In this document: positions 11,908-56,411 of the stretch, piece after piece
Numbering within the stretch: position 1 is the first letter of the stretch
Layout of the letters: each line of letters begins with the position of its first letter
NCBI GenBank assembly: GCA_035551355.1
Contig: DASZNF010000053.1
Location: forward strand, 7,129-71,128
Direction of reading: 5' to 3'
From: Pseudonocardiaceae bacterium
GTDB lineage: Bacteria; Actinomycetota; Actinomycetes; Mycobacteriales; Pseudonocardiaceae
Length of the DNA stretch: 64,000 nucleotides
Position numbers and translations under genes: made by a program
The notes under the pieces: model-generated
Told to the model about the DNA's origin: nothing
What the model saw: the letters and a program-made list of their open reading frames with translations, nothing else
Databases searched by the model: none

Positions 11908-13044
11908 GTGAGCGACCTGGGCTGGGCGGAGTTGCGCGAGGTGAGCGCCGCGGTGCTGGCGGTCAACGCGCACCGCACGGTGCACGAGGTGCTGCGCACC
12001 ATCGTGGCCGCCGCGCGCAAGCTGGGCGACGCGCGGTACGCGGCGCTGGGCGTGCCGGACGAGAACGGCGCGTTCTCCGACTTCCTGGCCTCGGGCATCA
12101 GCGACGAGCAGTGGCGGGCGATCGGCCCGGTGCCGCGCCAGCACGGCGTGCTCGGGGTGCTGTTGCGGGATCCGAATCCGGTGCGGCTGGCCGACATCCG
12201 CGAGCATCCCGGATTCGAAGGCTGGTGGCCCGCGGCCCACCCGGACATGACCGATTTTCTCGGCATGCCGATCACCGACGGCGGGGAGATCCTCGGGGAA
12301 CTGTTCCTGGCCAACAAGAACACTCCGGGCGGGTTCACCGCCGAGGATGAGGACCTGTTGCGGCTGCTGGCCGCGCACGCGGCGATCGCGCTGGTGAACG
12401 CCCGCCTGTCCGAGCGGGATCGCGAACTGTCCATTGTGGAGGAACGCAACCGGATCGCCCGGGAGCTGCACGACGCGGTGTCGCAGAAGCTGTTCAGCCT
12501 GCGGCTGACCGCGGACGCCGCGGGCGCACTGATGGACGCCGACCCGTCCCGGGCCGCGGCCGAACTGGACACGGTGCGCAAGCTGGCCGGCGAGGTGGCC
12601 GAGGAACTGCACGCCATCGTGGACGGCCTGCGCCCGCCCGCGCTGGCCGGGGACGGGCTGGATCTGGCCCTGCGCAAGCAGACCGAGCTGCTGGACCGGG
12701 TGCACACCGCGGACGTCCGGTTCGTCGGCTGCCCGGTGCCGCGGCTGCCCGAGCCGGTGGAGCGGGCCGCCTACCGGATCGCCCAGGAGGCGCTGCACAA
12801 CGCGCTGCGGCACGCCGAGGCCACCCGGATCGAGGTGGATCTGGCCTGCCTCAGGGATTCCGTCCGGCTGACCGTGTCGGACAACGGGTCCGGATTCGAC
12901 GCCGCGGACAAGCAGAACGCGGCCCGCAGGCTGGGCCTGACCTCGATGCGGGAACGGGCCCGGGTGGCCGGCGGGCGGCTGACCGTGGCCTCCCGGCCGG
13001 GCGGGGGCACCACGGTGCGATTGGAGGTGCCCGCCGGTGGCTGA
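11908..13044 (+). CDS. GAF-domain sensor histidine kinase (HisKA_3/NarL-partner type)
   Basis: An N-terminal GAF-like region is followed by an H-box ERNRIARELHDAVSQ and an HATPase region (DNGSGF, GLTSMRERA). The start is uncertain (TTG 11851 or GTG 11908). Confidence 0.8.
   Translation: MSDLGWAELREVSAAVLAVNAHRTVHEVLRTIVAAARKLGDARYAALGVPDENGAFSDFLASGISDEQWRAIGPVPRQHGVLGVLLRDPNPVRLADIREHPGFEGWWPAAHPDMTDFLGMPITDGGEILGELFLANKNTPGGFTAEDEDLLRLLAAHAAIALVNARLSERDRELSIVEERNRIARELHDAVSQKLFSLRLTADAAGALMDADPSRAAAELDTVRKLAGEVAEELHAIVDGLRPPALAGDGLDLALRKQTELLDRVHTADVRFVGCPVPRLPEPVERAAYRIAQEALHNALRHAEATRIEVDLACLRDSVRLTVSDNGSGFDAADKQNAARRLGLTSMRERARVAGGRLTVASRPGGGTTVRLEVPAGG
12429..12441. repeat. Copy of iterated 13-bp palindrome (GTCCATTGTGGAG, 1 outer mismatch)
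   Basis: Read directly. It lies inside the histidine kinase CDS in phase TCC ATT GTG GAG (SIVE). Confidence 0.8.
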
Positions 13045-13669
13045 CATCAGAGTGCTGGTGGTCGACGACCATCCCGTTGTGCGCCAAGGACTTCGCACGT
13101 TCCTGGACCTGCAACCCGACCTGGCCGTGGTGGGCGAGGCGGCCGACGGGCCGGAATGCGTCGAGCAGGCGGTGGCCTGCGACCCCGATGTGATCCTGCT
13201 GGATCTGCGGATGCCCGGCGGGGACGGGGTGGCCGCGTTGCGCGGGTTGCGCGAGCGCGGGGTGGCCGCCCGGGTGCTGGTGATCACCAGTTTCACCGAG
13301 CCGGCCGCGGTGCTGCCCGCGGTGCGCGCGGGCGCGGCGGGCTATGTGTACAAGGACATCGATCCGCCGGCGCTGGCCGCCGCGATCCGTTCGGTGCACG
13401 CCGGGCATGTGTTGCTGCACCCGGATGTGGCGCGGTTGCTGGCCGCGGGCGAGTCCGCGCCGGCGGGCACCCAGCTCACCCCGCGCGAGCTGGACGTGCT
13501 GGCCGAACTCGCCCGCGGCCGGTCCAACCGGGAGATCGCCAAGGCCCTGACCTTGTCGGAGAAGACGGTCAAGACGCATGTCAGCGCGATCCTGATGAAG
13601 CTGGGGGTGGCCGACCGGACCCAGGCTGCGCTGCACGCGGTGCGTTCCGGCCTGGTGCCCGCCCCCTAG
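13037..13669 (+). CDS. NarL/LuxR-family response regulator
   Basis: The receiver domain (VLVVDDHPVV, DVILLDLRMPG) is followed by a LuxR HTH (LTPRELDVLAELARGRSNREIA). It overlaps the kinase gene by 8 nt. Confidence 0.9.
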   Translation: MADIRVLVVDDHPVVRQGLRTFLDLQPDLAVVGEAADGPECVEQAVACDPDVILLDLRMPGGDGVAALRGLRERGVAARVLVITSFTEPAAVLPAVRAGAAGYVYKDIDPPALAAAIRSVHAGHVLLHPDVARLLAAGESAPAGTQLTPRELDVLAELARGRSNREIAKALTLSEKTVKTHVSAILMKLGVADRTQAALHAVRSGLVPAP

Positions 13670-13678
13670 AAAACTCCG

Positions 13679-13743
13679 TCAGCGCAACGGTTTCCGCCCG
13701 ATCCGGGCGCGTACCCGGAAGACCGTTTCAGCGCAACGGTTTC
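13679..13743. repeat. Two copies of the 16-mer TCAGCGCAACGGTTTC flanking a CGCCCG-ATC-CGGGCG hairpin, in a convergent intergenic region
   Basis: The copies lie at 13679-13694 and 13728-13743. The hairpin lies at about 13695-13709. The second copy overlaps the stop codon of the monooxygenase gene. Confidence 0.6.
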
Positions 13744-14959: not shown

Positions 14960-15570
14960 GTCGTGATCCCCTCAGGATGTTCGTGGTAGGCGGCCCACAT
15001 CCGGGCCCACCCGGTGTTCGGATCGGTGATCTGGTCGAGAAAGCGCCGGACGAACGCGGTTTCCGCGTCCAGCAGGGCCAGCCGGTACTGCTCCTCGACC
15101 AGGAACAGCTCGGGCACGTTCTCGGCGTGCGCACGGTCGAGCGCCTCGGTGATCTCGGCGCGCTGCCCGGCCAGGCCGTCCAGCCGGTTGCGCAGCAACG
15201 GCACGACCTCGGCCGGCGGCAGCCCGGTGATCAGGGACAACGCGGAGACGAACCGCGGGTACTCGTGTTCGGGTTCGCCGACCAGTTCGCGCAGCCAGTC
15301 CCGCATCTCGGCCCGGCCTTCGTCGGTGAGCGCGTAAACCGTGCGTTCCGGGCGCTGCCCGTCCCGGCTGGTCTCCTGCTCGGCGATGAACCCGGCCTTG
15401 GCCAGTTGGGCCACGACCATGTACAGCGAGCCGTGGTTGAACTTGATGCTGCGTTCGTCACCGTTGTCGCGCAGCGTCCGGCCCAGTTCGTAGGGGTGCA
15501 TCGGACGCTGCATCAGGTAGCACAGCACGGCCAGGGCGAGCAGGTTGCCGACCTTGCGTTTCTTCGCCAT
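14956..15570 (-). CDS. PadR-family transcriptional regulator
   Basis: The N-terminal winged helix PMHPYELGRTL...GSLYMVVAQLAKAGFI is followed by the C-terminal extension typical of long PadR proteins. It has an ATGA overlap with the monooxygenase gene. Confidence 0.9.
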   Translation of the reverse strand: MAKKRKVGNLLALAVLCYLMQRPMHPYELGRTLRDNGDERSIKFNHGSLYMVVAQLAKAGFIAEQETSRDGQRPERTVYALTDEGRAEMRDWLRELVGEPEHEYPRFVSALSLITGLPPAEVVPLLRNRLDGLAGQRAEITEALDRAHAENVPELFLVEEQYRLALLDAETAFVRRFLDQITDPNTGWARMWAAYHEHPEGITT

Positions 15571-15597
15571 GGGAGAAGTGTGCTGTGCCGCGTCAGG

Positions 15598-16059: not shown

Positions 16060-16110
16060 GATCGTTCCCCTCGGTGGTGCTTCTTGGTCGATGTCGAGTA
16101 TCCAGCTCAG

Positions 16111-16130
16111 AATAGTCAGTGTCAACTATT
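16111..16130. promoter_or_regulatory. Inverted repeat AATAGT-N8-ACTATT in an AT-richer divergent promoter region
   Basis: Read directly. It lies between the hyp-PadR-monooxygenase operon and the LLM oxidoreductase gene. Confidence 0.35.
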
Positions 16131-16193
16131 TGGCTGGAGTTACTCCATCCCCGCAGGTGAACGGCCTGTTCTCCGGCCGGTTAGGGTGCGCTC

Positions 16194-17978: not shown

Positions 17979-19433
17979 TCACCCGGCGGCCGACGAGACC
18001 AGCACCGCGTTGTCGATCAGCAGGTGCCCGTTGCTGGTGATCAGGGCGAACCGGTAGGTCTCCGTGCTGGTCCCACCGCCCTTCTTGGCGAACACCAGGA
18101 TCGCGGTCGCGGTGTGTGAATCGATCACGGTGACCTCGCGCACCCGCACCGCGGCGATGGTCCGGTAGAACCCTTGGAACACCCCGAATCCGCCGTTCTG
18201 CCGCTGGTAGTTCGGGGACAGCTCGCGGAACGCGGCCTGGGTGTTGTGCGGCAGCAGGCCGTAGTAGTCGACCAGGAAGCGTTTGATGGCCGTCGCGTCG
18301 GGCGCCTGGCCGGCCGGACTCGGCGCGGTCACGGTGGTGGAACTGGTCGACGTCGACCCGGCCGCCTGCGCGGTCTGCGGCCCGCCGGACATGCTGGCCA
18401 CGGCCAGCGCCACGCCGACCACGATCGCGGCGGCGGCCGCGGTGAACACGATCGCCTTGGTGGCCCTGCGGCGCTTGCGCACCGGCCGGGCCGGCGCGGG
18501 CAGCGGCGCCGGAAAGGCGTTGGCCGCGGACAACGTGCCGGTGGCGCCGGTCCGCCGCGGGCCGGCGCCGACCATCGCGGTTCGGTCCACTGTGGACTTT
18601 CGCGGTTTCGGCATCGCCTGCTGGGCGAGGCTCTCCAGCCGGGCGGACGCCTCGCCGAGGGTCAGCCGGGCGGCCGGTTCGGGCTGTAGCAGCCCGGTCA
18701 GCACCGGGGTCAGCGGCCCGGCCCGGCGCGGCGGGCGCACCCGGCCTGCGGCCGCCGAATACAGCACGGCCAGCGCGTTCTCGCCGGCGAACGGCGGCTC
18801 GCCCTCCACCGCCGCGTACAGGGTGGCGCCCAGCGCGAACACGTCCGAGGCCGGCGTGGGCGCCGCTCCCCCGGCCACCTCCGGCGCCAGGTAGGCCGGG
18901 GTGCCCGAGACCAGACCGGTCTGGGTGATCACCACGTCGCCGACGGCCCGGGAGATGCCGAAGTCGACCAGTTTCGCGCTGCCGCCCTCGGGCAGCAACA
19001 CGTTGCCCGGCTTGATGTCCCGGTGCACGATGCCGACCCGGTGGGCCGCGGTCAGCGCGGCGGCGATCTGCGCGCCGATGGCCGCCACCCGGGCCGGGGG
19101 CAGCGGGCCGTGCTCGGCCAGCACCGCGGCCAGGCTCGGCGCGGGCACGTACTCCATGACCAGCACCGGCGTGCCCTGGTGGTCCACCACGTCGTACACG
19201 GTGACCGCGTTGGGGTGGTGCAGCCGCGCGGTGATGCGGGCCTCGCGGCGGGCACGCTCGTGCGCCTCCTCAAGGGCCTCGCCGGTCACGTCGGCGCGTT
19301 CCAGCAGCAGTTTGACCGCGACGGCGCGCCGCAGCACCTCGTCCGCGCCCCGCCACACGCTGCCCATCGAGCCGCCACCGATCCGCTCGACGAGCCGGTA
19401 GCGGCCGGCGATGAGGTCGCCCTCGTTGCTCAC
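17979..19433 (-). CDS. Ser/Thr protein kinase with TM segment and extracellular C-terminal domain
   Basis: Kinase motifs: GGGSMGSVW, AVK, HRDIKPGNVLL, DFG, APE. The start is set at GTG 19433, which is preceded by GGGAGA. Confidence 0.85.
   Translation of the reverse strand: MSNEGDLIAGRYRLVERIGGGSMGSVWRGADEVLRRAVAVKLLLERADVTGEALEEAHERARREARITARLHHPNAVTVYDVVDHQGTPVLVMEYVPAPSLAAVLAEHGPLPPARVAAIGAQIAAALTAAHRVGIVHRDIKPGNVLLPEGGSAKLVDFGISRAVGDVVITQTGLVSGTPAYLAPEVAGGAAPTPASDVFALGATLYAAVEGEPPFAGENALAVLYSAAAGRVRPPRRAGPLTPVLTGLLQPEPAARLTLGEASARLESLAQQAMPKPRKSTVDRTAMVGAGPRRTGATGTLSAANAFPAPLPAPARPVRKRRRATKAIVFTAAAAAIVVGVALAVASMSGGPQTAQAAGSTSTSSTTVTAPSPAGQAPDATAIKRFLVDYYGLLPHNTQAAFRELSPNYQRQNGGFGVFQGFYRTIAAVRVREVTVIDSHTATAILVFAKKGGGTSTETYRFALITSNGHLLIDNAVLVSSAAG
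18585..18597. repeat. Copy of iterated 13-bp palindrome (GTCCACTGTGGAC, exact)
   Basis: Read directly. It lies inside the kinase CDS. On the coding strand it reads TCC ACA GTG GAC (STVD). Confidence 0.85.
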
Positions 19434-22438: not shown

Positions 22439-23086
22439 TCAGTCGAGACCGCTGTCGCGCAGCGTGATGTTCAGCCGTCCGGCGGACAGTCCGATGTCCG
22501 GGACTTCGATGTCCGGCAACAGCTTCGGCACCCCGTGGTAGGCGTCCCGGCTCGGCCCGCCGAACACCAGCAGGTCCCCGGAGCGCAGTTCCACGTCCAT
22601 CCACGGCCGGTTACGGTTCTCCGTGTTGCCCAACCGGAACACGCAGGCCGCCCCCAGACTCAGCGACACGATCGGCGCCGGTGAGCGTTCCTCGGCGTCG
22701 CGATGCTGACCCATTTTCGCGTCGGCATCGTAGAAATTGATCAGCGCGACATCCGGCACATAGTCCACAGTGGACTCTGGATCGGCGTCGGCCACCGCGG
22801 CGCGGCCCAGATCACCGAGCCAGTCCGGGAACGGCAGCACCGGTGAGCCGTCCTGGTCGTCCCGGGTGCGCGAGTAACGGTAGGGAATCCAGTGCCAGCC
22901 AAGGCAGACCGTGCGCACCGACATCAGCCCGCCGGTGGGCAGCCGGGCCGCCCGCAGTCCCGGACCGGCGCCGGCCCACTCCCGGCAGGCCCGCACCAAC
23001 TCGGCCTGCCGCTCGACGCTCAGCCAGTCCGGCACGTGCACCGCGCCGGGCGCGAGTTCCCGCCGCAGCCGGGGAAGCAGCTCCAT
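22439..23086 (-). CDS. alkB: Alpha-ketoglutarate-dependent dioxygenase AlkB
   Basis: AlkB-like motifs: LINFYDADAKMGQHRDAEE, IVSLSLG, FGGPSRDAYHGV, RLNITLR. Confidence 0.85.
   Translation of the reverse strand: MELLPRLRRELAPGAVHVPDWLSVERQAELVRACREWAGAGPGLRAARLPTGGLMSVRTVCLGWHWIPYRYSRTRDDQDGSPVLPFPDWLGDLGRAAVADADPESTVDYVPDVALINFYDADAKMGQHRDAEERSPAPIVSLSLGAACVFRLGNTENRNRPWMDVELRSGDLLVFGGPSRDAYHGVPKLLPDIEVPDIGLSAGRLNITLRDSGLD
22763..22775. repeat. Copy of iterated 13-bp palindrome (GTCCACAGTGGAC, exact)
   Basis: Read directly. It lies inside alkB. On the coding strand it reads TCC ACT GTG GAC (STVD). Confidence 0.85.
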
Positions 23087-23089
23087 CTA

Positions 23090-24592
23090 CTAATCCCCTG
23101 CCACCGGTGCGCTGCTGGTCCCCTGTTCCTCCGGATACACCGCCGGACCGGCCACCGCGCCGCAGTGCGAGCAGGTCTCCAGTTCCAGCCGGGGCACCAC
23201 GCGCGGCGCCGGGGTGGGCGCCGGAATGGCCAGGAAGGCCAGCAGCGCGCCCAGGGTCAGCAGGCAGGCCGCGATGATCATGGACAGGTGGAAGCCGTGG
23301 TCGAACGCGGTGGCGTCGGTGTAGTCGCCGCCGGAGATGCCGGCCACCACCGGGATCACCGCGACCGCGAGCAGCCCGGCCGCGCGGGCCACCGCGTTGT
23401 TGATGCCGGAGGCAAGCCCGGCGTGCCGGTCGTCGACCGAGTCCAGCACGGTCGCGGTCAATGGCGCCACGGTCAGCGACAGGCCGAGGCCGAACACCAC
23501 CACCGCGGGCAGCACGTCGGTCAGGTAGTGCGCGTGGGCGCCGATGCGCAGGGTCAGCAGCAGTCCGCAGGCGGCCACCAGCGGCCCGGCGGTCATCGGG
23601 ATCCGGGGGCCGATCTTCTGGGCCAGCCGCCCGGTGCGCGAGGACAGCGCCAGCATGATCAGCGTGACCGGCAGCAGCGCGGTGCCGGCCAGCAGCACCG
23701 GGAACGAGGCGACCACCTGCAACTGCAGCACCAGCAACAGGAACACCACACCCAGCGCCGCGTACACCAGCAACGTCACCAGGTTGGCCGCACTGAACCG
23801 GCGGCTGGCGAAGATGTCCAGCGGCACCAGCGGATGGCTGGATTTCCGTTCCACCACAACGAAACTCACCAGCGCCGCCACCCCGACCATCCCGGCCACC
23901 CAGGTGGTCGCGCCGCCACTGCCGGCCGAGGTGAGCGCGGCCGTGGTCGCGCCGAGACCCAGGACGACCAGCACCGTGCCCCATAGGTCGGTGTGCGGCG
24001 AGGCGCTGGGGTCGCGGGATTCGGGCACGTGTTTCAACGCCACCACCACGACCAGCACGGCCAGCGGCAGGTTGATCAGGAACACCGCGCGCCAGGTCCA
24101 CTGCACCAGCCAGCCGCCGAGGAACGGCCCGATCGCCCCGGCGATCCCGCCCAGCCCGGACCACGCGCCCACCGCGGCCGAGCGGTCGGCGCCGCCGAAG
24201 GAGGCGGAGATGATGGCCAGGCTGCCCGGGGTGAGCAGCGCGCCGCCGATGCCCTGCACCGCGCGGGCGGCCACCAGCACGGTGATGTTGGGCGCCAGCC
24301 CGCACAGCAGTGAGGCCAGCGCGAACCACACCACCCCGATGAGGAACACCCGGCGCCGGCCGAACCGGTCGCCCAGCGAGCCGCCGAGCAGGATCAGCGA
24401 GGCCAGGGTGAGGGTGTAGGCATTGACCGTCCACTGTAGACCAGCGAAGGCGGTGTGCAGGTCGGCGCCGATGTGCCGCAGCGCGATGTTGACCACGGTG
24501 GAGTCGAGCATCGCCACGCCCGAGCCCAGCACCGTGGCCAGCAGCACCCAACGGCCGGTCGGCGTCCCCATGCGCAACGTCGGCTCGCTCAT
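23090..24592 (-). CDS. MFS transporter, DHA2 (EmrB/QacA, 14-TMS) type
   Basis: Sequence such as LGSGVAMLDSTVVNIAL and GGSLGDRFGRRRVF, together with about 14 hydrophobic segments. The start is set at ATG 24592. Confidence 0.85.
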   Translation of the reverse strand: MSEPTLRMGTPTGRWVLLATVLGSGVAMLDSTVVNIALRHIGADLHTAFAGLQWTVNAYTLTLASLILLGGSLGDRFGRRRVFLIGVVWFALASLLCGLAPNITVLVAARAVQGIGGALLTPGSLAIISASFGGADRSAAVGAWSGLGGIAGAIGPFLGGWLVQWTWRAVFLINLPLAVLVVVVALKHVPESRDPSASPHTDLWGTVLVVLGLGATTAALTSAGSGGATTWVAGMVGVAALVSFVVVERKSSHPLVPLDIFASRRFSAANLVTLLVYAALGVVFLLLVLQLQVVASFPVLLAGTALLPVTLIMLALSSRTGRLAQKIGPRIPMTAGPLVAACGLLLTLRIGAHAHYLTDVLPAVVVFGLGLSLTVAPLTATVLDSVDDRHAGLASGINNAVARAAGLLAVAVIPVVAGISGGDYTDATAFDHGFHLSMIIAACLLTLGALLAFLAIPAPTPAPRVVPRLELETCSHCGAVAGPAVYPEEQGTSSAPVAGD

Positions 24593-27044: not shown

Positions 27045-27147
27045 GCGGCGGGCAACCGCGGGCGTAAGCACTGGGCAAGAAGGGCGTCACAGTTCGGTAA
27101 GCGGCGTAACGGTGTCGACCGCCCGGAGTAGGCATTAGCGTTCTGGT

Positions 27148-28347
27148 GTGGACGTAGAACAGCCCGCCGGACCGGCCACTGTGGACGGTAGGCGGCACCC
27201 GATCCGGTCGCGCCTGCCGCGCTCCCCGCGTCCGCCGGAGGAGAAGGACTTCACGGCCGAGGCGCACGACCGGACGGTGACTTCCCGGATCGGGCTGTGG
27301 CTGGGCATCGCGTTCACCGTCTGCTTCGTCACCGGGCTGCTCAGCCATTTCATCCAGCACCCGACGTCCTGGTTCTTCTGGCCCAGCCGCCCGGTGAGCC
27401 TCTACCGGTTCACCCAGGGCCTGCACGTGATCTCCGGGATCGCGGCGATTCCGCTGCTGCTGGCCAAGCTGTGGTCGGTCTTCCCGAAACTGTTCGGCAA
27501 GCCGCTGGTGCGCTCACTGCCACACGCCATCGAGCGCGGCTCCATCCTGCTGTTGTCCGCCTCGGCGTTCTTCGAGCTGATCACCGGCGTGTTCAACATC
27601 TTCCAGAACTACCCGTGGCCGTTCTACTTCCCCACCATCCACTACGCGATCGCCTGGGTGGCCGTCGGCTCGATCGCGGTGCACGTGGCGGTGAAGCTCC
27701 CGGTGATCCGGCTGGGCCTCGGCGAGGAACCCGGCTTCAAACCGGGGCGCGACAGCCTGTCCCGCCGGGGTTTCCTGCGCGCCACCTGGCTGACCACCGG
27801 GGTCGCGGTGCTGGCCACCGCGGGCAGCTCGGTTCCGTTCCTGCGCACCGTTTCCGTGCTGGCCACGCAGAACACCGACGGCGAGCAGTCGCTGCCGGTC
27901 AACCGCAGCGCGGCGCACGCCGGCATCATCGCCAAGGCCACCGATCCGGCCTGGCGGCTGGAGATCGCCGCGCCGCACGGCCTGCACCGGTTCTCCCTGG
28001 CCGACTTGCGGGCCATGCCGCAGACCACGGCCGAACTGCCGATCGCCTGCGTCGAGGGCTGGAGCCGGTCGGCGACCTGGACCGGGGTGCCGGTGGCGGA
28101 TCTGTTGCGGGCGGTGGGTTCCGGCCCGGGCACCGCGCTGCGGGTGGAGTCGCTGGAGCGCGGCTCGATCTACGGCTCCAGCACACTGCCCGGCGAGCAC
28201 ACCCAGGACCCGTTGACCTTGCTGGCTTTGCGGCTCAACGGCGAGGTGCTGGATCTGGACCACGGCTTCCCGTGCCGGATCATCGCGCCGAGCCGGCCGG
28301 GCGTGTTGCAGACCAAATGGGTGGTGCGGATGGAGGTGCTGAGCTGA
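27148..28347 (+). CDS. Molybdopterin-dependent oxidoreductase (sulfite-oxidase fold) fused to an N-terminal membrane domain
   Basis: The N-terminal half has several TM segments. The C-terminal half has LPIACVEGWS and HGFPCRIIAPSRPG motifs typical of the Mo-oxidoreductase family. Confidence 0.8.
   Translation: MDVEQPAGPATVDGRRHPIRSRLPRSPRPPEEKDFTAEAHDRTVTSRIGLWLGIAFTVCFVTGLLSHFIQHPTSWFFWPSRPVSLYRFTQGLHVISGIAAIPLLLAKLWSVFPKLFGKPLVRSLPHAIERGSILLLSASAFFELITGVFNIFQNYPWPFYFPTIHYAIAWVAVGSIAVHVAVKLPVIRLGLGEEPGFKPGRDSLSRRGFLRATWLTTGVAVLATAGSSVPFLRTVSVLATQNTDGEQSLPVNRSAAHAGIIAKATDPAWRLEIAAPHGLHRFSLADLRAMPQTTAELPIACVEGWSRSATWTGVPVADLLRAVGSGPGTALRVESLERGSIYGSSTLPGEHTQDPLTLLALRLNGEVLDLDHGFPCRIIAPSRPGVLQTKWVVRMEVLS
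27174..27186. repeat. Copy of iterated 13-bp palindrome (GGCCACTGTGGAC, 1 mismatch)
   Basis: Read directly. It reads GCC ACT GTG GAC (ATVD) in the annotated frame. Confidence 0.7.
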
Positions 28348-28793
28348 TGCGCACCACGCGGATCGTGTTGGCGCTGGCCGGATTGGCCGCGCTGGGCTAC
28401 GGCATCTCGCTGGTGGTGCCCTTCGCCATCGGCTCACCGGAGAGCGCTCGGTCCACAGTGGAATTCCTGGTCGGCGGACCGGTGGTGCACGACGGCATCG
28501 TGGCGCCCGTCGTGGGCGTGGTCGGCCTGCTCATCGCCCGGAAGCTGCCTCGGCACTGGCGCACTCCGGTGCGGTTGGGCGCGGCGATCTCGGCTGTGCT
28601 CGGGCTGATCGCCGTGCCCGCGTTGTGGCGCGGGTACGCCGGTCTGCACAATCCCGGGCTGGACGACCGGAACTACCCGCTCGGCCTGCTGCTGGCGTTG
28701 CTGGTGGTCTGGCTGGTGGTGGTCGCCGCTGCCCTCGCGCGGCGACGCACCGACCAGCCACCCCCGACCGCTGTGGGTCGTCAGAACCGTTGA
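28347..28793 (+). CDS. Hypothetical integral membrane protein (148 aa)
   Basis: The ATG overlaps the upstream stop (TGATG). It has four hydrophobic segments and high GC3. Confidence 0.6.
   Translation: MRTTRIVLALAGLAALGYGISLVVPFAIGSPESARSTVEFLVGGPVVHDGIVAPVVGVVGLLIARKLPRHWRTPVRLGAAISAVLGLIAVPALWRGYAGLHNPGLDDRNYPLGLLLALLVVWLVVVAAALARRRTDQPPPTAVGRQNR
28451..28463. repeat. Copy of iterated 13-bp palindrome (GTCCACAGTGGAA, 1 outer mismatch)
   Basis: Read directly. It reads TCC ACA GTG GAA (STVE) in frame. Confidence 0.75.
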
Positions 28794-31280: not shown

Positions 31281-31293
31281 GTCCACAATGGAC
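31281..31293. repeat. Copy of iterated 13-bp palindrome (GTCCACAATGGAC, exact), intergenic
   Basis: Read directly. It lies 29 nt upstream of the LMW-PTP start. Confidence 0.85.
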
Positions 31294-31321
31294 TATTCGA
31301 GCATCCCGTAGGCTGTCGGTC

Positions 31322-32631: not shown

Positions 32632-32644
32632 ATCCACAATGGAC
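32632..32644. repeat. Copy of iterated 13-bp palindrome (ATCCACAATGGAC, 1 outer mismatch), intergenic
   Basis: Read directly. It overlaps a second small inverted repeat CACAAT-N6-ATTGTG. Confidence 0.75.
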
Positions 32645-32679: not shown

Positions 32680-32708
32680 TTGACACCGTAGTGGTCTAGT
32701 CCAATTCT
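32680..32708 (+). promoter_or_regulatory. Candidate promoter (TTGACA -35) with overlapping DasR/dre-like box AGTGGTCTAGTCCAAT
   Basis: TTGACA lies at 32680-32685. The dre-like 16-mer lies at 32690-32705 and matches 14 of 16 positions of the recalled consensus. A weak -10 candidate AATTCT sits 17 nt after the -35. The site is 70 nt upstream of the chitinase ATG. Confidence 0.5.
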
Positions 32709-32774: not shown

Positions 32775-34526
32775 ATGCGTCTGCCCAGACCCGCCGCCGC
32801 GGTCACCGCAGCGTTAGTCGCCACGGTCACCGCGGCCGGATTCACCCTCGCCCTCGCGACCACGGCCAATGCCGCGACCGCCCTGCCCACCCACGTGTAC
32901 GCGCCGTACTTCGAAACCTGGAACGGCGACAGCCTGTCCGGTCTGGCCGGCCAGTCCGGCGCCAAATACCTGACCCTGGCCTTCCTGCAGACCGCCAGCG
33001 CGGGCTCCTGCACCGTCGACTGGGACGGCAGCACCAGCACTCCGGTGTCGTCCTCGGTCTACGGCAGCGACATCAACACGTTGCGGGCCAACGGTGGCGA
33101 CGTCATCCCGTCCTTCGGCGGCTACTCGGCCGACCACGGCGGCACCGAGATCGCGGACAGCTGCACCGATGTCAACCAGATCGCCGCGGCCTACGAGAAC
33201 GTGGTCACCACCTACGGCGTGACCAGGCTGGACCTGGACACCGAGGACAACTCCCTGACCAACTCCGCGGGCATCGACCGGCGCAACAAGGCCATCAAGA
33301 TTGTCGAGGACTGGGCCGCGAGCACCGGCCGCACCGTGCAGTTCGCCTACACCCTGCCCGCCACCCCGACCGGCCTGAGTTCGGCGGGCGTGGCCGTGCT
33401 GCAGAACGCGGTCGGCAACGGCGCGCGGGTCGACGTGGTCAACGCGATGACCTTCGACTACTACATCGGCACCACCCAGGAAATGGCCACCGACACCGAG
33501 TCCTCGGCCAACGGCATCTACAGCCAGCTGGCCGGCCTGTACCCGAGCAAGACGTCGACCCAGCTGTGGAACATGATCGGCGTGACCGAGATGCCCGGCA
33601 TCGACGACTACGGCAGCGCCGAAACCTTCACCACCGCGGATGCCACCACGATCGAGAACTGGGCCGTCGGCAAGGGTCTGGGTGAGCTGTCCATCTGGGC
33701 GCTGCAACGCGACAACGGCGGCTGTCCCGGGACCGCGGGCGCGGGCACCTGCTCCGGGATCTCCCAGAACGCCTGGTACTTCGACAACACCTTCGAACCG
33801 TTCACCAGCGGCGGTGGCACCACCACCAACGACTTCTCGGTCTCGGTGTCGCCGTCGACCGCGTCGGTCACCGCAGGCGGCTCGACCACCGCGACGGTCG
33901 GCACCGCGGTCACCAGCGGCAGCGCCCAGACCGTCAGTCTGTCCGCCACCGGCGCCCCCTCCGGCGTCACCGTCTCTCTGTCCCCCACCTCGGTGACCGC
34001 AGGTGGCACCTCCACCCTGAGCGTCGCCACCTCCGCGTCGGCCGCCGCCGGCAGCTACCCGATCACCATCACCGGCTCGGCCGGATCCGGTAGCCACAGC
34101 ACCACGTTCACCCTCACGGTGGGCGGCGGCGGCACCGGAGGCGGCGGTAGCCTGACCAACGGCGGCTTCGAATCCGGCAGCCTCAGCCCGTGGACCTGCC
34201 AGTCCGGCAGCGCCGTGGTCTCCAGCCCGGTCCACTCCGGCAGTCATTCCCTCCAGGTCGCCCCCACCTCGTCCCAAACCGGCGAGTGCGACCAGACGAT
34301 CACGTTGTCCGCCAACAGTTCCCATACCCTCACCGCGTGGGTCCAGGGCAACTACGCGTTCGTCGGGGTCACCGGCGCAGCCACCGCAAGCACCTGGGTG
34401 TCCGCCTCCGGCTGGACCCAGCTGACCGTCCCCTTCACCACCGGCTCCTCCGGCTCGGTCACCGTCTACGTCCATGGCTGGTACGCCCAGGGCAACGTCT
34501 ACGCCGACGACATCTCCGTCAGCTGA
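32775..34526 (+). CDS. Secreted GH18-like chitinase with Ig-like linker domain and C-terminal CBM4/9-like carbohydrate-binding module
   Basis: A signal peptide is followed by the DxDxE-type motif LDLDTED, a Ser/Thr-rich Ig-like segment and a C-terminal GGFESG...WYAQGNVYADDISV module. AGGAG sits before the ATG. Confidence 0.8.
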   Translation: MRLPRPAAAVTAALVATVTAAGFTLALATTANAATALPTHVYAPYFETWNGDSLSGLAGQSGAKYLTLAFLQTASAGSCTVDWDGSTSTPVSSSVYGSDINTLRANGGDVIPSFGGYSADHGGTEIADSCTDVNQIAAAYENVVTTYGVTRLDLDTEDNSLTNSAGIDRRNKAIKIVEDWAASTGRTVQFAYTLPATPTGLSSAGVAVLQNAVGNGARVDVVNAMTFDYYIGTTQEMATDTESSANGIYSQLAGLYPSKTSTQLWNMIGVTEMPGIDDYGSAETFTTADATTIENWAVGKGLGELSIWALQRDNGGCPGTAGAGTCSGISQNAWYFDNTFEPFTSGGGTTTNDFSVSVSPSTASVTAGGSTTATVGTAVTSGSAQTVSLSATGAPSGVTVSLSPTSVTAGGTSTLSVATSASAAAGSYPITITGSAGSGSHSTTFTLTVGGGGTGGGGSLTNGGFESGSLSPWTCQSGSAVVSSPVHSGSHSLQVAPTSSQTGECDQTITLSANSSHTLTAWVQGNYAFVGVTGAATASTWVSASGWTQLTVPFTTGSSGSVTVYVHGWYAQGNVYADDISVS

Positions 34527-44727: not shown

Positions 44728-46155
44728 GTGGCGACCTACCCTGATCGGGTGGCCGACCTGACCGAATACCGGCGGCGCCGCGACCCGGCACGCACTCCCG
44801 AACCGGTGCCCGAGGATGGTCCGCTGCCCAGCGGCGGCAACGACGTGTTCGTAATCCAGGAGCACCACGCCCGGCGACTGCACTACGACGTGCGGCTGGA
44901 GCGGGACGGGGTGCTGGTGTCCTGGGCGGTGCCCAAGGGCCTGCCCGAGCACGGTGGCGCGGTGCGGCTGGCGGTGCACACCGAGGACCATCCGATGGAG
45001 TACGCCGGATTCGCCGGGGACATCCCGGGCGGCGAGTACGGCGCCGGGCACGTGGACATCTTCGATCGCGGCCGGTACGAGACGCTGAAGTGGAGCCGGG
45101 ACGAGGTCGAGGTGGTGCTGCACGGGCGGCGCACCGAAGGCCGGTTCGTGTTCTTCCGCCGGACGCGTGGTTCGAACGACCGGGACTGGATGGTGCGCCG
45201 GCGCAGCGATCCCGGCGCGGACGACGACCACGTGGACGATGACGGCGGGCCGATCTCGGTCCAGGTCGAGGATCGGCGGTTGCGACTGTCCAATTTGGAC
45301 AAGGTGCTGTATCCGGAGACCGGATTCACCAAGGGCGAGGTGATCGACTACTACCAGCGTATCGCGCCGGTGCTGCTGCCCCGGCTGGCCGGCCGGCCGG
45401 TGACGTTTCGCCGCTACCCCAACGGAGTCGACGCGCATTCGTTCTTCGAGAAGGACGTGTCCCGGCACGCGCCGGACTGGGTGCGCACCGTGCACCTGCC
45501 GACCCCGGGCAGCACCAAGGACAGCGAGTACGCCGATTTCCCGATGGTCGACGATCTGCCCACGCTGATCTGGGCCGCCAACCTGGCCGCCCTGGAACTG
45601 CACGTTCCACAGTGGACTGTCGGTCCGCGGGGCGGGGTGCGCGCGCCGGATCTGCTGGTGTTCGATCTGGATCCGGGCGCACCGGCCACCATCGTGGAGT
45701 GCGCCCGGGTGGCTCAGCTGATCAACGAGGCGCTGACTGCGGACGGGCTGACCGGATTCCCGAAAACCAGCGGCTCCAAGGGGATGCAGATCTACGTGCC
45801 GGTGCGAGTCAGCGCCGAGGGCCGCACCCGGGCCTATGCCCGCACGCTGGCCGACCGGCTGGCCCAGGAGCATCCGGAGCTGGTGGTCGCGGTGATGGCC
45901 AGGGCGCGCCGGGGCGGCAAGGTGTTCGTGGACTGGGACCAGAACAACCCGAACAAGACCACCATCGCGCCGTATTCGCTGCGCGCCCGCGACCAGCCGG
46001 CCGTGTCCACCCCGGTCACCTGGCGCGAGGTGAGCCGCTGCCGTGAACCGGCCGACCTGAGCTTCACCGCCGAGCAGGTGCTGGACCGGGTGTCCCGGCG
46101 CGGTGACCTGCTGGCCGGCCTGGACGACGCGGTCGCGCCGCTGCCCCGCGGCTGA
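44728..46155 (+). CDS. LigD-like fusion of a 3'-phosphoesterase (PE) domain and a polymerase/primase domain, with no ligase domain
   Basis: PE motifs: FVIQEHHARRLHYDVRLE, WAVPKG, HTEDHP, GRFVFFR. Pol motifs: LSNLDKVLYP, VIDYYQRIAP, FFEKDV, DLDP, KTSGSKGMQIYV, VFVDWDQN. The start is approximate. Confidence 0.85.
   Translation: MATYPDRVADLTEYRRRRDPARTPEPVPEDGPLPSGGNDVFVIQEHHARRLHYDVRLERDGVLVSWAVPKGLPEHGGAVRLAVHTEDHPMEYAGFAGDIPGGEYGAGHVDIFDRGRYETLKWSRDEVEVVLHGRRTEGRFVFFRRTRGSNDRDWMVRRRSDPGADDDHVDDDGGPISVQVEDRRLRLSNLDKVLYPETGFTKGEVIDYYQRIAPVLLPRLAGRPVTFRRYPNGVDAHSFFEKDVSRHAPDWVRTVHLPTPGSTKDSEYADFPMVDDLPTLIWAANLAALELHVPQWTVGPRGGVRAPDLLVFDLDPGAPATIVECARVAQLINEALTADGLTGFPKTSGSKGMQIYVPVRVSAEGRTRAYARTLADRLAQEHPELVVAVMARARRGGKVFVDWDQNNPNKTTIAPYSLRARDQPAVSTPVTWREVSRCREPADLSFTAEQVLDRVSRRGDLLAGLDDAVAPLPRG
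45605..45617. repeat. Copy of iterated 13-bp palindrome (TTCCACAGTGGAC, 1 outer mismatch)
   Basis: Read directly. This is the only coding copy in a different codon phase (GTT CCA CAG TGG ACT). Confidence 0.75.
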
Positions 46156-48309: not shown

Positions 48310-49437
48310 TCACGATCCGAGACTAGCCGTCGAGTCGAACCTGGTGGGCCGGTAAGGGGCCAGTTCAGGGACGTCGCGACCCTCGGTCAGCTCGGTGGCG
48401 ACCAGCTCGGCCAGGTGCGCGCCCAGGGTCACACCGCTGTGCGTGACCACCACATAGCCGCGGTCGCCGACCGGACCCACGATCGGGTGCCAGTCGACCG
48501 GGATCGGCCGCACGCACACCCGGTGTTCCACCACCCGGGCGCCGGCCAGCCCGGGCACGATGCGGCGGGCCCGGTCCAGCAGTTCGGCCGCCCAGCCGCG
48601 CAGGTCCCGCTCCGGGGTGTGCAGGTCGACCCGGGCGTCCTCGGCCTCCAGGTGCAGCAGGCCGTCCGGGTGCGGGCGCAGGACCACCTCGGGCGTGTGC
48701 AACAGCCGCCGCGGCACCGGCTCGGCGACCGGGCCGACCCGGACGATCAGGCACGGCGCCTCGGAGCCGGGTTCGTCCCAGCGCAGCAACGGAACCGGCG
48801 GGCCGAACCGCCCGGCCAGTTCCGGGGTCCACCGGCCCGCGCAGCACACCACCACGCCGGCGGTCACCGCCGGTCCACTCGCGGTGCGCACCTCGCCCTC
48901 GGTCACGTCCACCACCCGGCCCGCGTCGCCGGTGCGCACGCTCGCGCCGAATCCCTCGGCCCGGGCCACCAGCCGGTCGACCAGCGGCTCGGTGAGCAGG
49001 TAGGCCTCCTCGGGAAACCAAGCCAGCGCCGGGTTTCCGGGCGGGAGGGTGATGCCCGGTTCGAGGGCGGCGGCGGTGACCGGGTCGATCATCCGGGCCG
49101 CGTAACCCCAGTCGGCCAGCCGCCGCACCCGCTCGGTCAGCGCGCCCGGATCGGCCGACCACTCGAGGTTTCCCACCGGGCGAAACCAATTCTCACCGTC
49201 CATTGTGGACGCTAGTGCGGCCCAGGCCCGCATGCCCGCCAGGTTGCGGTCGTAGTACGCACGTGGGGTTTTCTCGTTGGCGTTGCACCAGGCCAGGCTG
49301 GAGCGGGTGGTGGCCCGGCCGGGCCGGTCGCGGTCCAACAGGGTGACCGGCGCGCCCCGCGCGGCCAGCGCCCCGGCCAGCGCGGCGCCCACCACCCCGG
49401 ACCCGATCACGGCGTAGCCGCGGGGCGCCGCCGTCAC
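48310..49437 (-). CDS. FAD-dependent oxidoreductase (DAO/glycine oxidase-like)
   Basis: Contains the N-terminal VIGSGVVGAALAGALAARG dinucleotide fold. The GTG at 49437 overlaps the stop of the upstream remnant ORF (GTGA). Confidence 0.8.
   Translation of the reverse strand: MTAAPRGYAVIGSGVVGAALAGALAARGAPVTLLDRDRPGRATTRSSLAWCNANEKTPRAYYDRNLAGMRAWAALASTMDGENWFRPVGNLEWSADPGALTERVRRLADWGYAARMIDPVTAAALEPGITLPPGNPALAWFPEEAYLLTEPLVDRLVARAEGFGASVRTGDAGRVVDVTEGEVRTASGPAVTAGVVVCCAGRWTPELAGRFGPPVPLLRWDEPGSEAPCLIVRVGPVAEPVPRRLLHTPEVVLRPHPDGLLHLEAEDARVDLHTPERDLRGWAAELLDRARRIVPGLAGARVVEHRVCVRPIPVDWHPIVGPVGDRGYVVVTHSGVTLGAHLAELVATELTEGRDVPELAPYRPTRFDSTASLGS
49198..49210. repeat. Copy of iterated 13-bp palindrome (GTCCATTGTGGAC, exact)
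   Basis: Read directly. On the coding strand it reads TCC ACA ATG GAC (STMD). Confidence 0.85.
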
Positions 49438-50869: not shown

Positions 50870-50944
50870 ACTGCCTCTGTTCGGCCGAACTCGATTCGAT
50901 ATCTCGAACATCCGAAATGTCGAACGGCGCACTTTCGGGCCTGT

Positions 50945-53563: not shown

Positions 53564-53681
53564 GCCGGTGACCGGAATTCCGTCGGTGGGGCCGAAAGTC
53601 CAACGGGTTGAGGGCCGTTTGCCCTGTCTGCCGTTGGGCCTTTCGGACTGGACTGGACAGACCCCAGCGCCTGGAGACGTC

Positions 53682-56363
53682 GTGTCCGGACTCGTGTACG
53701 ACCTGTGTGACACCGGCGGCGTGGCCGCCGACCAGCTCGGCCGGACGGGAACCGAACTCGCCGAACTGATCGGGCTGGGCCTGCCCGTGCCACCGGGTTT
53801 CGTGCTGACCGCGCGGGCCTGTCACGCCTATCTCGCCGCCCAGGAGGTGCCGACCGAACTGGCCGAGCCGGTCCGCGCGCACCTGCACGAGCTGGCGCGG
53901 CGGGCGGGCCGCAAACTGGGCCAGTCCGACGATCCGCTGCTGCTGTCCCTGCACGCCGATCGGCCCGGTTCCGGTCAGGACGCGCCGGCCGCGCCGGTGC
54001 GCGGCATCGGGCTGACCGACGCCTCGGTGGCCGGGTTCATCGCGGCGGGCGGCGACGAACGCGCCGTGTGGGACCTCTACCAGCGGCTGGTGGCCGCGTA
54101 CGGCACGGTGGTGGCCGGCATTCCGGCCGAGAAGTTCGAGGCCGAGCTGACCCGTGCCGACTGGGCCTGCGGTCAGGCCGAGCAGTTCTGCTCGGGCGCG
54201 GCCGAGTTACCGGCGCTGGTCGCCGCGCACAAGCGGGTCCTGCGCGAGCAGACCGGCCGGGAGTTTCCACAGGACCCCAACGAGGTGCTCGAGTCGTTCG
54301 TGCGCGCGACGTTCGACTCCTGGGCGGTGAACGGCCGGGGGCGGCGGCCGCTCGTCACTTCCGGCGGCGCGTTGACCATTTCCACCATGGTGTTCGGCCA
54401 TCTCGGCGTGGATTCGGGTATCGGCGTTGCGCACACCCGTGATCCGGGTTCCGGTAGGCCCGGAGTGCGCGGCCATTACCTGCCTGGGGCGCGGGCCGGG
54501 AACCTGGTTTCCGGCCCGCGCGGGGCGGACTCCCTGGCCCGGCTCGCGCGACTGAATCCCGATGCGCACCAACGGCTTCTGACCATTTCATCCATTGTGG
54601 ACGAACATTTTCGCGACCTGTGCGACATCGACTTCGTGGTGGAGCGCGGGCGGTTGTGGGTGTTGCGGGCCGGACCGGGCCGGCGCGGCGCGGCCGCGGC
54701 GTTCCGCATCGCGATGGCACTGCACGACGAGGGCGTGATCGACGACGACGAGGCGCTGTGCCGGGTCACCGGTGAGCAGCTGACCCAGCTGTTGTTCCCC
54801 CGGTTCGATCCGGGCGTCCCCGGACAGCGGGTGGCCACCGGGGTGGCCGCCTCGCCGGGCGCCGCGGTGGGACAGGTGGTGTTCGACTCGGTCACCGCGG
54901 TCAGCTGGGCCAAGGCCGGCCGGCCGGTGATCCTGGTGCGTACCCACACCACCCAGGACGATCTGCCCGGGATGAGCCTGGCCCGCGGGGTGCTGACCAG
55001 CCGGGGCGGGCAGACCTCGCATGCCGCGGTGACCGCGCGCGGTCTCGGCCGCACCTGCGTGACCGGCGCCGACCAGCTGTCCGTGGACACCGGCGGGCAC
55101 CGGTTCACCGCGCCCGGCGGGGTGCTGGTGCGGGAGGGCGACACGGTGTCCATCGACGGGGCGACCGGCGCGGTGTGCCTTGGCGAGGTGCCGGTGGTGC
55201 CCTCGCCGGTGGTGGAGTACTTCGAGGGCGAGATCGAGCCGGACGCCGACGCGGTCGTGCATGCCGTGCACCGGATTCTGCGCTACGCCGACCGCCGCCG
55301 GGTGCTCGCGGTGCGGGCCAACGCCGACACTCCGGCCGATGCCGCGCGGGCCCGCCGGTTCGGCGCGGACGGTATCGGACTGTGCCGCACCGAGCAGATG
55401 TTCTCCTCCGATCGCCGGGCCCTGATCGAGCGGCTGATCGTGGCCGAGCCGGACGACCACCACGAGCGGGCCGATGTGCTGGCCGAGCTGCTTCCGTTGC
55501 AGCGCCAGGACTTCCAGCAGATCTTCCGGGCGATGGACGGCCGGCCGGTGACCGTGCGGCTGCTCGACCCGCCGCTGCACGAATTCCTGCCGGATCTGAC
55601 CGAGTTGTCGGTGCGGGTGGCGCTGGCCGAGGCCGGCGGCGCGGCCGAGGTGGCCGATGTGTGGCTGCTGCGAGTGGCCCGGCGGCTGCACGAGCACAAC
55701 CCGATGCTGGGTCTGCGCGGGGTGCGGCTGGGGCTGGTCGTGCCCGGCCTGTACGAGATGCAGGTGCGGGCCATCGCCGAGGCGGCCGCCGCATGCGTGA
55801 CCGAGGGCGGGCGCCCACGGGTGGAGATCATGGTCCCGCTGGTGGCCGACGCGACCGAACTGGCCGTGGTGCGCGAGCGGGCCGAGGCAGTGCTGGCCGA
55901 GGTCAGGGAGCACACCGGGATCGACCTGCCGGCCGCGATCGGCACCATGATCGAGCTGCCCCGGGCGGCGCTGACCGCGGGCCGGATCGCCGAGCACGCG
56001 CAGTTCTTCTCCTTCGGCACCAACGATCTCACCCAGACCGCCTGGGGAATGTCACGTGACGACGCGGAATCGGAGTTTCTGCCCGAGTACCGGGCACAGG
56101 GCATCCTGACCGGCTCACCGTTTTCCAGCATCGACGAGGAGGGCGTCGGCCGGCTGATCACGCTGGCCACCGGCGAGGGCCGGGCGGCCCGGCCCGACCT
56201 GCACGTGGGCGTGTGCGGGGAGCACGGCGGCGACCCGGAGTCGATCCACTTCTTCCACCGGCTGCGCATCGACCACGTGTCGTGCTCGCCGTTCCGGGTG
56301 CCGATCGCCCGCCTCGAGGCCGGCCGGGCCGCCGCCTGCTACCCACTCCCCTCGGTCGGATAA
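53682..56363 (+). CDS. ppdK: Pyruvate,phosphate dikinase-like protein (PEP-utilising enzyme) with a divergent N-terminal nucleotide-binding domain
   Basis: The conserved phospho-His motif GGQTSHAAVTARGLG is present. PEP/pyruvate domain motifs are also present: GIGLCRTEQMF, RLLDPPLHEF, NPMLGLRG, MIELPRAAL, FFSFGTNDLTQ, CGEHGGDP, SCSPFRVPIARL. The start is set at GTG 53682 after GGAGA. Confidence 0.85.
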   Translation: MSGLVYDLCDTGGVAADQLGRTGTELAELIGLGLPVPPGFVLTARACHAYLAAQEVPTELAEPVRAHLHELARRAGRKLGQSDDPLLLSLHADRPGSGQDAPAAPVRGIGLTDASVAGFIAAGGDERAVWDLYQRLVAAYGTVVAGIPAEKFEAELTRADWACGQAEQFCSGAAELPALVAAHKRVLREQTGREFPQDPNEVLESFVRATFDSWAVNGRGRRPLVTSGGALTISTMVFGHLGVDSGIGVAHTRDPGSGRPGVRGHYLPGARAGNLVSGPRGADSLARLARLNPDAHQRLLTISSIVDEHFRDLCDIDFVVERGRLWVLRAGPGRRGAAAAFRIAMALHDEGVIDDDEALCRVTGEQLTQLLFPRFDPGVPGQRVATGVAASPGAAVGQVVFDSVTAVSWAKAGRPVILVRTHTTQDDLPGMSLARGVLTSRGGQTSHAAVTARGLGRTCVTGADQLSVDTGGHRFTAPGGVLVREGDTVSIDGATGAVCLGEVPVVPSPVVEYFEGEIEPDADAVVHAVHRILRYADRRRVLAVRANADTPADAARARRFGADGIGLCRTEQMFSSDRRALIERLIVAEPDDHHERADVLAELLPLQRQDFQQIFRAMDGRPVTVRLLDPPLHEFLPDLTELSVRVALAEAGGAAEVADVWLLRVARRLHEHNPMLGLRGVRLGLVVPGLYEMQVRAIAEAAAACVTEGGRPRVEIMVPLVADATELAVVRERAEAVLAEVREHTGIDLPAAIGTMIELPRAALTAGRIAEHAQFFSFGTNDLTQTAWGMSRDDAESEFLPEYRAQGILTGSPFSSIDEEGVGRLITLATGEGRAARPDLHVGVCGEHGGDPESIHFFHRLRIDHVSCSPFRVPIARLEAGRAAACYPLPSVG
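54590..54602. repeat. Copy of iterated 13-bp palindrome (ATCCATTGTGGAC, 1 outer mismatch)
   Basis: Read directly. It reads TCC ATT GTG GAC (SIVD) and sits in a locally AT-rich patch of the ppdK-like CDS. Confidence 0.75.
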
Positions 56364-56398
56364 CCGCTGCCGGACAGCCGGTTCACCGGGCCAGACAA

Positions 56399-56411
56399 GT
56401 CCACAGTGGAC
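56399..56411. repeat. Copy of iterated 13-bp palindrome (GTCCACAGTGGAC, exact), intergenic
   Basis: Read directly. It lies between the convergent ppdK-like and gabD genes. Confidence 0.85.

Follow-up and report, generated by a model that had tools for sequence, protein, structure and literature searches.

Why does one stretch of bacterial DNA carry the same 13-bp palindrome again and again, inside genes as well as between them? The question is raised by a 64-kb segment from a metagenome-assembled genome (MAG) of a soil actinomycete, family Pseudonocardiaceae (hereafter the window). Its G+C content is ~70% throughout, and the palindrome GTCCACARTGGAC occurs in it in five exact and seven one-mismatch copies. 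The exact copies start at positions 18585, 22763, 31281, 49198 and 56399, and the one-mismatch copies at 12429, 24429, 27174, 28451, 32632, 45605 and 54590. A previous inspection made from the letters alone (the sequence-only reading) had counted at least 11 copies. Every one of these 11 was found where it had been placed; the copy that was missed lies on the minus strand at 24429-24441 (GTCTACAGTGGAC). Copies with two mismatches (533, 7086, 10852, 40470, 45288 and 56782) were left out of the set; the six that were seen, compared with 2-4 expected, are a marginal excess.

Excess over chance and codon usage

Dinucleotide shuffles of the window yielded 0.01 exact copies and 0.22 copies with no more than one mismatch, compared with 5 and 12 observed. 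Markov models of order 1, 3 and 5 predicted 0-0.05 exact and 0.05-0.2 one-mismatch copies. These values agree with the earlier estimate, made from base composition, of far below one copy per 64 kb. Dinucleotide shuffles underestimate k-mers that are driven by codons, as another repeated word in the window illustrates: GTAGTAG/CTACTAC is found at 17 places (e.g. 4465, 4489, 50326 and 50329) and only 0.6 times in shuffled sequence, an excess that is most likely a consequence of Tyr-Tyr pairs encoded as TAC TAC.

A codon-aware null model had been named beforehand by the sequence-only reading as the test that could refute it, and in the 64-kb window the excess survived this test. Genes were called from third-position G+C and Pfam matches. 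Shuffling of synonymous codons within the 49 called genes, which preserves each protein and its codon usage, left 0.85 coding copies on average when one mismatch was allowed, and never more than 3 in 150 runs; shuffling of codon order left 0.11. Eight were seen. The sites are lost under synonymous shuffling because the usage of their codons is 3-6%. We conclude that neither chance nor codon usage explains the excess.

The palindrome as the enriched unit

The consensus is best written as the palindrome GTCCAC-W-GTGGAC (GTCCACWGTGGAC; W, A or T), with a 6-1-6 layout. One variant recurs: in 5 of the 12 copies G8 is replaced by A after a central A (CACAATGG or CCATTGTG). Other mismatches affect mostly the outermost base pair. 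The half-site GTCCAC occurs 112 times, exactly as expected from a maximal-order Markov model (112), and the heptamer GTCCACA is found only five times in the window outside full copies. With half-sites at expectation, the enriched object is the whole palindrome.

We then asked how far the centre is constrained. With the arms TCCA...TGGA held fixed, motif-rich sequences have the central triplet CAG 29 times and CAA six times, and any other triplet one to three times. Since the centre is skewed in this way, it is read and does not form a free loop. According to the asymmetric centre, six copies are oriented on the plus strand and six on the minus strand, so that no strand skew is apparent. The 25 bases on each side of the copies have nothing in common; only the 13 bp are shared. 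As a single strand the palindrome would form a weak hairpin (-3.2 to -4.7 kcal/mol; z-scores about -0.5 to -2) that lacks a T-run, compensatory changes in the arms were not seen among the window copies, and a comparison with Rfam families and tRNA genes gave no matches. These properties point to a protein of two-fold symmetry that recognises the palindrome in duplex DNA. The palindromic unit, the read centre and the mixed orientation together argue against a polar signal of the type of Chi or the FtsK-orienting polar sequences (KOPS), against an RNA element and against a mobile-element relic.

Genes, spacers and codon phase

Eight or nine of the 12 copies lie inside unrelated genes and three are intergenic. 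The gene assignments of the sequence-only reading, including its three intergenic copies, held when compared with our gene calls and Pfam matches. Spacers are somewhat over-used, with 3-4 of 12 copies in the 8.3% of the window that is non-coding (p = 0.07 to 0.014). Where copies lie in genes, the reading frames are intact, the copies have no consistent relative position and their orientation with respect to transcription of the host gene is mixed.

Seven of the nine coding copies share the phase xxG TCC ANN NTG GAN (binomial p = 0.008), and the remaining two are in phase GT CCA CAG TGG AC. The bias had been noticed before for seven of eight coding copies, together with the suggestion that this phase is the cheapest. 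It is: the preferred phase needs one rare codon and each of the other two phases needs two. The codons concerned are seldom used in the window: ACA and ACT account for 2.7% and 3.0% of the codons for Thr, and ATT for 5.9% of those for Ile. As the motif depends on these three codons, it is written against codon preference. Moreover, the synonymous null (0.85) exceeds the codon-order null (0.11), from which it follows that the peptide S-T-V-D, too, is enriched. The proteins have been shaped by the DNA signal, not the DNA signal by the proteins.

Distribution and turnover among actinomycetes

We compared 80 loci from GTDB species representatives of actinomycetes, found by a RecQ scan. Twelve Pseudonocardiales loci (Amycolatopsis, Prauserella, Actinophytocola, Kibdelosporangium, Saccharopolyspora and MAGs) contained 14 copies in 230 kb, whereas the 68 loci from other actinomycetes (Streptomyces, Micromonospora, Kribbella, Actinomadura and others) contained three in 1,361 kb. 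The motif is thus ~28-fold denser at the RecQ loci of Pseudonocardiales (p = 8e-10). Density within the family, which rests on loci of up to 22 kb plus the one 64-kb window, is uneven (0-3 copies per 21 kb), with the window (about one copy per 5 kb) at the high end. The RecQ scan of the genome collection returned no syntenic or close relative of the window. Pseudonocardiales plasmids and isolated phages, sought for whole-replicon counts, were absent from the matches listed.

The origin of the copies can be followed in Amycolatopsis. At syntenic loci with ~86-88% nucleotide identity around the site, the near-copy GTCCACTGTGGTC of one species corresponds to GTCCACCGTCGTC and GGCCACCGTCGTC in the alignment with two others, and a near-copy within RecQ of A. 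acididurans aligns with unrelated codons in other species. These alignments show that copies arise by substitution and turn over. An exact copy (encoding PSTVDH) lies in the hypervariable linker of a Ser/Thr kinase from another Pseudonocardiaceae MAG (L185, 10882-10894), which is orthologous and 52% identical to a kinase of the window that also carries a copy. Of six homologues of a prophage tail gene with the perfect copy GGT CCA CTG TGG AC (GPLWT), four retain the rare codons of that copy.

Prophages and phages

A scan of viral contigs with a 14-mer returned 103 stretches that were mostly background; ~20% held further copies. Stretch L012 is a prophage of Amycolatopsis orientalis that carries the motif. 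A profile search with its tail protein gave 80 related prophage loci, of which the four closest had 15 copies in 60 kb, compared with 15 copies in 1,162 kb for the other 76. This difference in density shows that the motif in prophages follows the host lineage. One prophage copy is located inside an insertion sequence, and the terminal inverted repeats of that element differ from the motif. Taken together, the RecQ and prophage data demonstrate that the motif is restricted to one bacterial family and its resident prophages.

The most motif-rich viral contig (L051/L209) belongs to a bona fide phage and encodes terminase, portal, protease and capsid. In L209 (16 kb) there are 13 one-mismatch and 15 two-mismatch copies (28 in total) and almost no perfect copy; the near-copies are mostly in the preferred codon phase, at about one per kb within structural genes. 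A relative with a 56% identical portal has no copies with up to one mismatch. The heptamer GTCCACA occurs 20 times in L209 compared with 2.5 expected, eight times as GTCCACA-NN-GGAG/GGAC, and several of these lie directly before gene starts. Because the signal is partly this different GTCCACA-NN-GGAG pattern, we treat the contig with caution. A methyltransferase encoded by L051 was considered as a motif-linked DNA methyltransferase and rejected, as it is a generic enzyme of the small-molecule type.

In several viral contigs, two or three perfect copies abut. In one group of high-G+C contigs (L194, 8174-8199; also L186, L189 and L191), tandem perfect copies occupy the spacer between the genes for an HNH endonuclease and the small terminase, and L190 has three abutting perfect copies there (3481-3519). 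A cos or pac site or a late operator is usually found at this place. Lower-G+C phages have operator-like pairs of the palindrome upstream of a gene. To judge from their arrangement, such tandem copies indicate that proteins can use the palindrome as a binding array; the dispersed copies may have no connection with them. Two further repeat arrays came up in the viral sequences: five iteron-like repeats of GAGTTCGGTCCACAGTGGWCC with 24-36 bp spacing in a prophage of an isolate genome (L029, 898-1031), and a run of six copies, abutting or nearly so, in non-coding DNA of a viral contig of 60 kb (L036, 997-1077).

The individual copies in the window

Five coding copies lie on the minus strand. At 12429-12441, the one-mismatch CAA variant CTCCACAATGGAC encodes S-I-V-E in the linker before the H-box of a GAF/HisKA_3 histidine kinase. 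The one-mismatch copy at 24429-24441 belongs to an MFS transporter gene and is in phase GT CTA CAG TGG AC. At 27174-27186, the one-mismatch copy GTCCACAGTGGCC lies at the start of a Mo-oxidoreductase gene, 130 nt past the RecQ stop, and the GTG within it is the start codon in one public gene call for an identical metagenome contig. In the same spacer, a lone half-site (GTGTGGAC, 27146-27153) is located 21 nt upstream of this copy. The exact CAA variant at 49198-49210 (GTCCATTGTGGAC on the plus strand) encodes S-T-M-D in a gene for an FAD-dependent oxidoreductase (DAO), and the one-mismatch CAA variant GTCCACAATGGAT at 54590-54602 encodes S-I-V-D between the N-terminal and mobile domains of a PPDK-like protein.

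On the plus strand, the one-mismatch copy GTCCACAGTGGAA (28451-28463) encodes S-T-V-E in a DUF2231 membrane-protein gene, and TTCCACAGTGGAC (45605-45617, one mismatch) falls in the primase-polymerase domain of LigD, in phase GTT CCA CAG TGG ACT. The exact CAA variant GTCCACAATGGAC (31281-31293) is intergenic. It follows a MetE-like stop by 37 nt, precedes the GTG start of the gene for a low-molecular-weight phosphotyrosine phosphatase by 29 nt and overlaps a leaderless-type promoter at its -35 position. The -10-like TAGGCT of this promoter (31309-31314) lies 7 nt before the GTG (31322), which suggests a leaderless transcript. The one-mismatch CAA variant ATCCACAATGGAC (32632-32644) is intergenic as well, 7 nt past a fructosamine-kinase stop and ~130 nt before the start of a GH18 gene. 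Upstream of the latter, which also encodes a carbohydrate-binding module and starts at 32775, a DasR/dre-like box (AGTGGTCTAGTCCA, 32690-32703) adjoins TTGACA (32680-32685); we take this box to be the regulation signal for chitin and N-acetylglucosamine expected in an actinomycete.

Three exact palindromes were not assigned to a strand. GTCCACTGTGGAC (18585-18597) encodes S-T-V-D in the hypervariable linker of the Ser/Thr protein kinase, and GTCCACAGTGGAC encodes the same peptide in an AlkB (2OG-Fe(II) oxygenase) gene (22763-22775). The protein sequence of the kinase is 100% identical to an entry annotated from a 'Pseudonocardiaceae bacterium' MAG. A second copy of GTCCACAGTGGAC (56399-56411) lies between convergent genes, 36 nt past the PPDK-like stop and 53 nt from the stop of an aldehyde dehydrogenase gene. 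Towards the end of the window, a 19-bp unit (GATATCGCGATTCGGCTCA) is repeated in ~4.4 tandem copies (63751-63834) in the spacer upstream of a minus-strand gene (ATG at 63697), an iteron- or operator-like arrangement.

Comparison with known systems

The highly iterated palindrome HIP1 of cyanobacteria (GCGATCGC) is 8 bp long and can exceed one copy per gene; its features include site conservation and kilobase periodicity, and its function has been puzzling for decades. It is the closest behavioural analogue of our motif. Like HIP1-type palindromes, which exceed the expectation from composition by one to two orders of magnitude, the motif is a perfect short palindrome that is strongly over-represented (in the 64 kb plus the sampled loci), occurs in coding and non-coding DNA with a preferred frame, is lineage-restricted and has spread by nucleotide substitution. 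For HIP1 the over-representation is 15- to 300-fold (PMC5861425); the excess in the window is larger. HIP1 also embeds the sites of two orphan methyltransferases, GATC and CGATCG (PMC4390886), and its function is debated (PMC5861425, PMC4390886). The comparison with HIP1 had been made in the sequence-only reading and holds for the behaviour, that is, for the presence in genes and spacers, the codon-phase bias and the origin by substitution. It fails for sequence, length, phylum and density: unlike the denser 8-bp HIP1, the motif is 13 bp long and occurs about once per 5-20 kb, its sequence is different and its phylum is Actinomycetota. The motif is not a member of the HIP1 family.

Other palindromes of 12-16 bp are read by a dedicated dimer and often lie within genes, namely matS (MatP), the SlmA-binding sites (SBS), the Noc-binding sites (NBS), parS (ParB) and the KorB operator. 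The KorB operator of plasmid RK2 is a 13-mer of 6-1-6 layout that is present about 12 times on 60 kb. In the chromosomal matS, SlmA, Noc and parS systems, a genome has tens of sites, which are either restricted to a macrodomain or kept out of one. Similar to the sites of these chromosomal systems, copies of the motif are near-perfect, have unconserved flanks and are allowed within genes. The earlier comparison with matS and SlmA sites was apt with regard to shape. Density, however, sets the motif apart: at about one copy per 5 kb, it is locally 5-10 times denser than those systems. The sequence of parS (GTTTCAC-GTGAAAC) is unrelated to the motif except for the central CAC/GTG.

DNA uptake sequences (DUS) of Neisseria, uptake signal sequences (USS) of Pasteurellaceae and Chi are host-specific and occur roughly once per 1-5 kb; they are asymmetric, 5-12 nt long and, in the case of Chi, strand-skewed. 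Like them, the motif is tolerated within genes in preferred frames and is shared with some resident mobile DNA. Unlike them, it is palindromic and unskewed, with unenriched half-sites; it is neither an asymmetric oligomer nor strongly strand-skewed, as a signal of the Chi or KOPS type would be. Stoperators of cluster A mycobacteriophages and the start-associated sequences of cluster K are 13 bp long, asymmetric, oriented with transcription and confined to phages. The motif resembles these phage sites in its length of 13 bp and its dispersal; in addition, GTCCACA-NN-GGAG of L209 stands before several gene starts and the tandem copies of other contigs adjoin the small terminase gene. Unlike the phage sites, the motif is abundant in ordinary genes of the host chromosome.

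The DnaA box (actinobacterial TTGTCCACA) is an asymmetric 9-mer with a 5' TT that is enriched in the form of single boxes. We rejected it as an explanation: neither TTGTCCACA nor TGTCCACA is present in the window and GTCCACA is unenriched outside the palindromes, so that the shared heptamer is a resemblance only.

A putative reader of the palindrome and the alternatives

Exact-sequence and keyword searches of the searchable literature found no described motif of this sequence, in line with the sequence-only reading, which did not recognise it as a described actinobacterial operator. The view that the motif is a DNA-level signal tolerated inside genes stands up to the codon-aware nulls, and is consistent with the use of rare codons, the full palindrome as unit and the unrelated flanks. 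Two findings had been named in advance as contradicting it, a known regulon and a single repeated protein motif; neither explains the copies, which lie in unrelated genes and are restricted to the family. Since the motif matches no described system, it probably marks DNA for a putative protein.

The explanation that we favour, if tentatively, is that the GTCCACARTGGAC sites are recognition sites of a putative lineage-specific dimeric protein that binds or modifies DNA and has a chromosome-wide role. GTCCAC-W-GTGGAC would be the double-stranded site of a two-fold symmetric, presumably homodimeric, sequence-specific protein characteristic of the Pseudonocardiaceae, either a DNA-binding protein or a DNA-modifying enzyme, that would tolerate the change of G8 to A. 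New copies are created by point substitution, not by insertion, wherever protein-coding constraint permits: spacers accommodate them somewhat more easily than genes, where they mostly take the phase G-TCC-ACW-GTG-GAC and cost a rare Thr or Ile codon. Copies would be maintained for their number along the DNA and not for their exact position. The motif would then be a chromosome-wide mark (nucleoid-organising, epigenetic or self-labelling) and not a set of promoter operators. Prophages living in these hosts carry it at host-like density.

Several observations weigh against this explanation, in which the reader is putative and selection for density is presumed. The linker copy of the Ser/Thr kinase is missing in the two closest homologues (62-63% identical), and relatives of the fructosamine kinase (up to 72% identity) in a metagenome scan had no downstream or flanking copies. 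The GPLWT stretch of the tail gene also keeps neighbouring rare A-ending codons and the peptide is widely conserved, so that selection on the motif is not isolated there. The uneven density in the family (0-3 copies per 21 kb) leaves room for a local enrichment of the window. Finally, the most motif-rich phage contig (L051/L209) partly reflects GTCCACA-NN-GGAG, and the phage evidence may in part be a separate phenomenon.

A bolder form of the explanation, which we consider possible but rather doubtful, is that the palindrome is a selected 13-bp host mark, present hundreds to thousands of times in the chromosomes and resident prophages of the Pseudonocardiaceae, to which phages must conform and which is read by an undescribed protein. 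Such a reader might, for example, organise the chromosome as a clamp loader, write epigenetic marks or tell self from non-self, and the mark would be an actinobacterial counterpart of HIP1, DUS or Chi.

Could the palindrome be a functionless product of mutation? A repair- or methylation-linked bias, for example from a methyltransferase together with a mismatch-correcting nuclease, might turn near-matches into the palindrome, as a neutral HIP-like process. This would account for copies that arise by substitution, in genes and spacers alike and in the cheapest codon phase. It would also fit their turnover between species and a host-like density in resident prophages, as opposed to the sparse copies of the other related prophages. 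However, the commonest near-variant GTCCATTGTGGAC (5 of 12) is the product of a C-to-T transition, which a bias restoring C should deplete. In addition, 13 specified bases far exceed any repair context known to us, no methyltransferase or Vsr-like gene could be tied to the motif, and for HIP1 selection and not biased repair has been argued (PMC5861425). We regard a neutral origin as unlikely.

Less probable is a signal for 'host DNA' in DNA traffic or repair, an uptake, transfer or nuclease-attenuating sequence comparable with DUS, USS or Chi. The motif is common to hosts and prophages and tracks the host taxon; by analogy, its codon-phase bias and its density of about one per 5 kb would resemble USS and Chi, and the bona fide phage contig with its near-copy per kb in structural genes is consistent with such a role. 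The features of Chi-type signals were absent, though, as described above, the 28 near-copies of phage L209 include almost no perfect copy and are partly start-associated GTCCACA-NN-GGAG, and we know of no sequence-specific DNA uptake in actinomycetes.

We also think it improbable that a global transcription factor whose regulon is unusually large uses the palindrome as its ordinary operator. The 6-1-6 palindrome is typical of dimeric helix-turn-helix proteins, the copies at 31281 and 27174 lie at a -35 position and at a gene start, respectively, spacers are modestly over-used and phages hold operator-like tandem pairs. But most copies are within unrelated genes at no consistent position, and one lies between convergent genes. 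The copies are near-perfect instead of degenerate, they are neither concentrated at promoters nor conserved upstream of orthologous genes in relatives, and the density extrapolated from 64 kb implies hundreds to thousands of sites per genome.

A single-stranded structure, that is, a hairpin of a 5-bp stem and a 3-nt loop acting in RNA or DNA as terminator, processing site or translational control, is very improbable: although the common G8-to-A variant keeps the 5-bp stem and the 3' arm in L209 is often part of a Shine-Dalgarno-like GGAG, the weak folding, the constrained loop and the other properties of the unit reported above speak against it. A relic of a mobile element (miniature inverted-repeat transposable element, repetitive extragenic palindrome or transposon end), an assembly artefact or a by-product of codon usage is hardly credible, since nothing specific favours it beyond the one prophage copy in an insertion sequence, whose own terminal inverted repeats are different, while the copies share 13 bp and no longer element, have unrelated flanks, are mostly not extragenic and leave frames intact, the motif occurs in isolate genomes such as that of A. 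orientalis, and the codon-aware nulls fall short ~10- to 70-fold.

Implications for the Pseudonocardiaceae

Hyper-abundant short palindromes are rare, and HIP1 is the best-known case. A second, independent case would give a new handle on how DNA-level signals are superimposed on coding sequence. Compared with HIP1, this one comes from another phylum; its sequence is much longer and more specific, and resident prophages share it. The 13-bp site is also specific enough for its putative reader to be pulled down directly. To our knowledge, actinomycetes have none of the known nucleoid-occlusion and Ter-organising systems, and a family-wide palindromic mark is therefore a concrete lead to a putative chromosome-organising, epigenetic or self-recognition system in these bacteria. 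On the practical side, the mark could matter when DNA is to be transferred into Amycolatopsis and antibiotic producers related to it.

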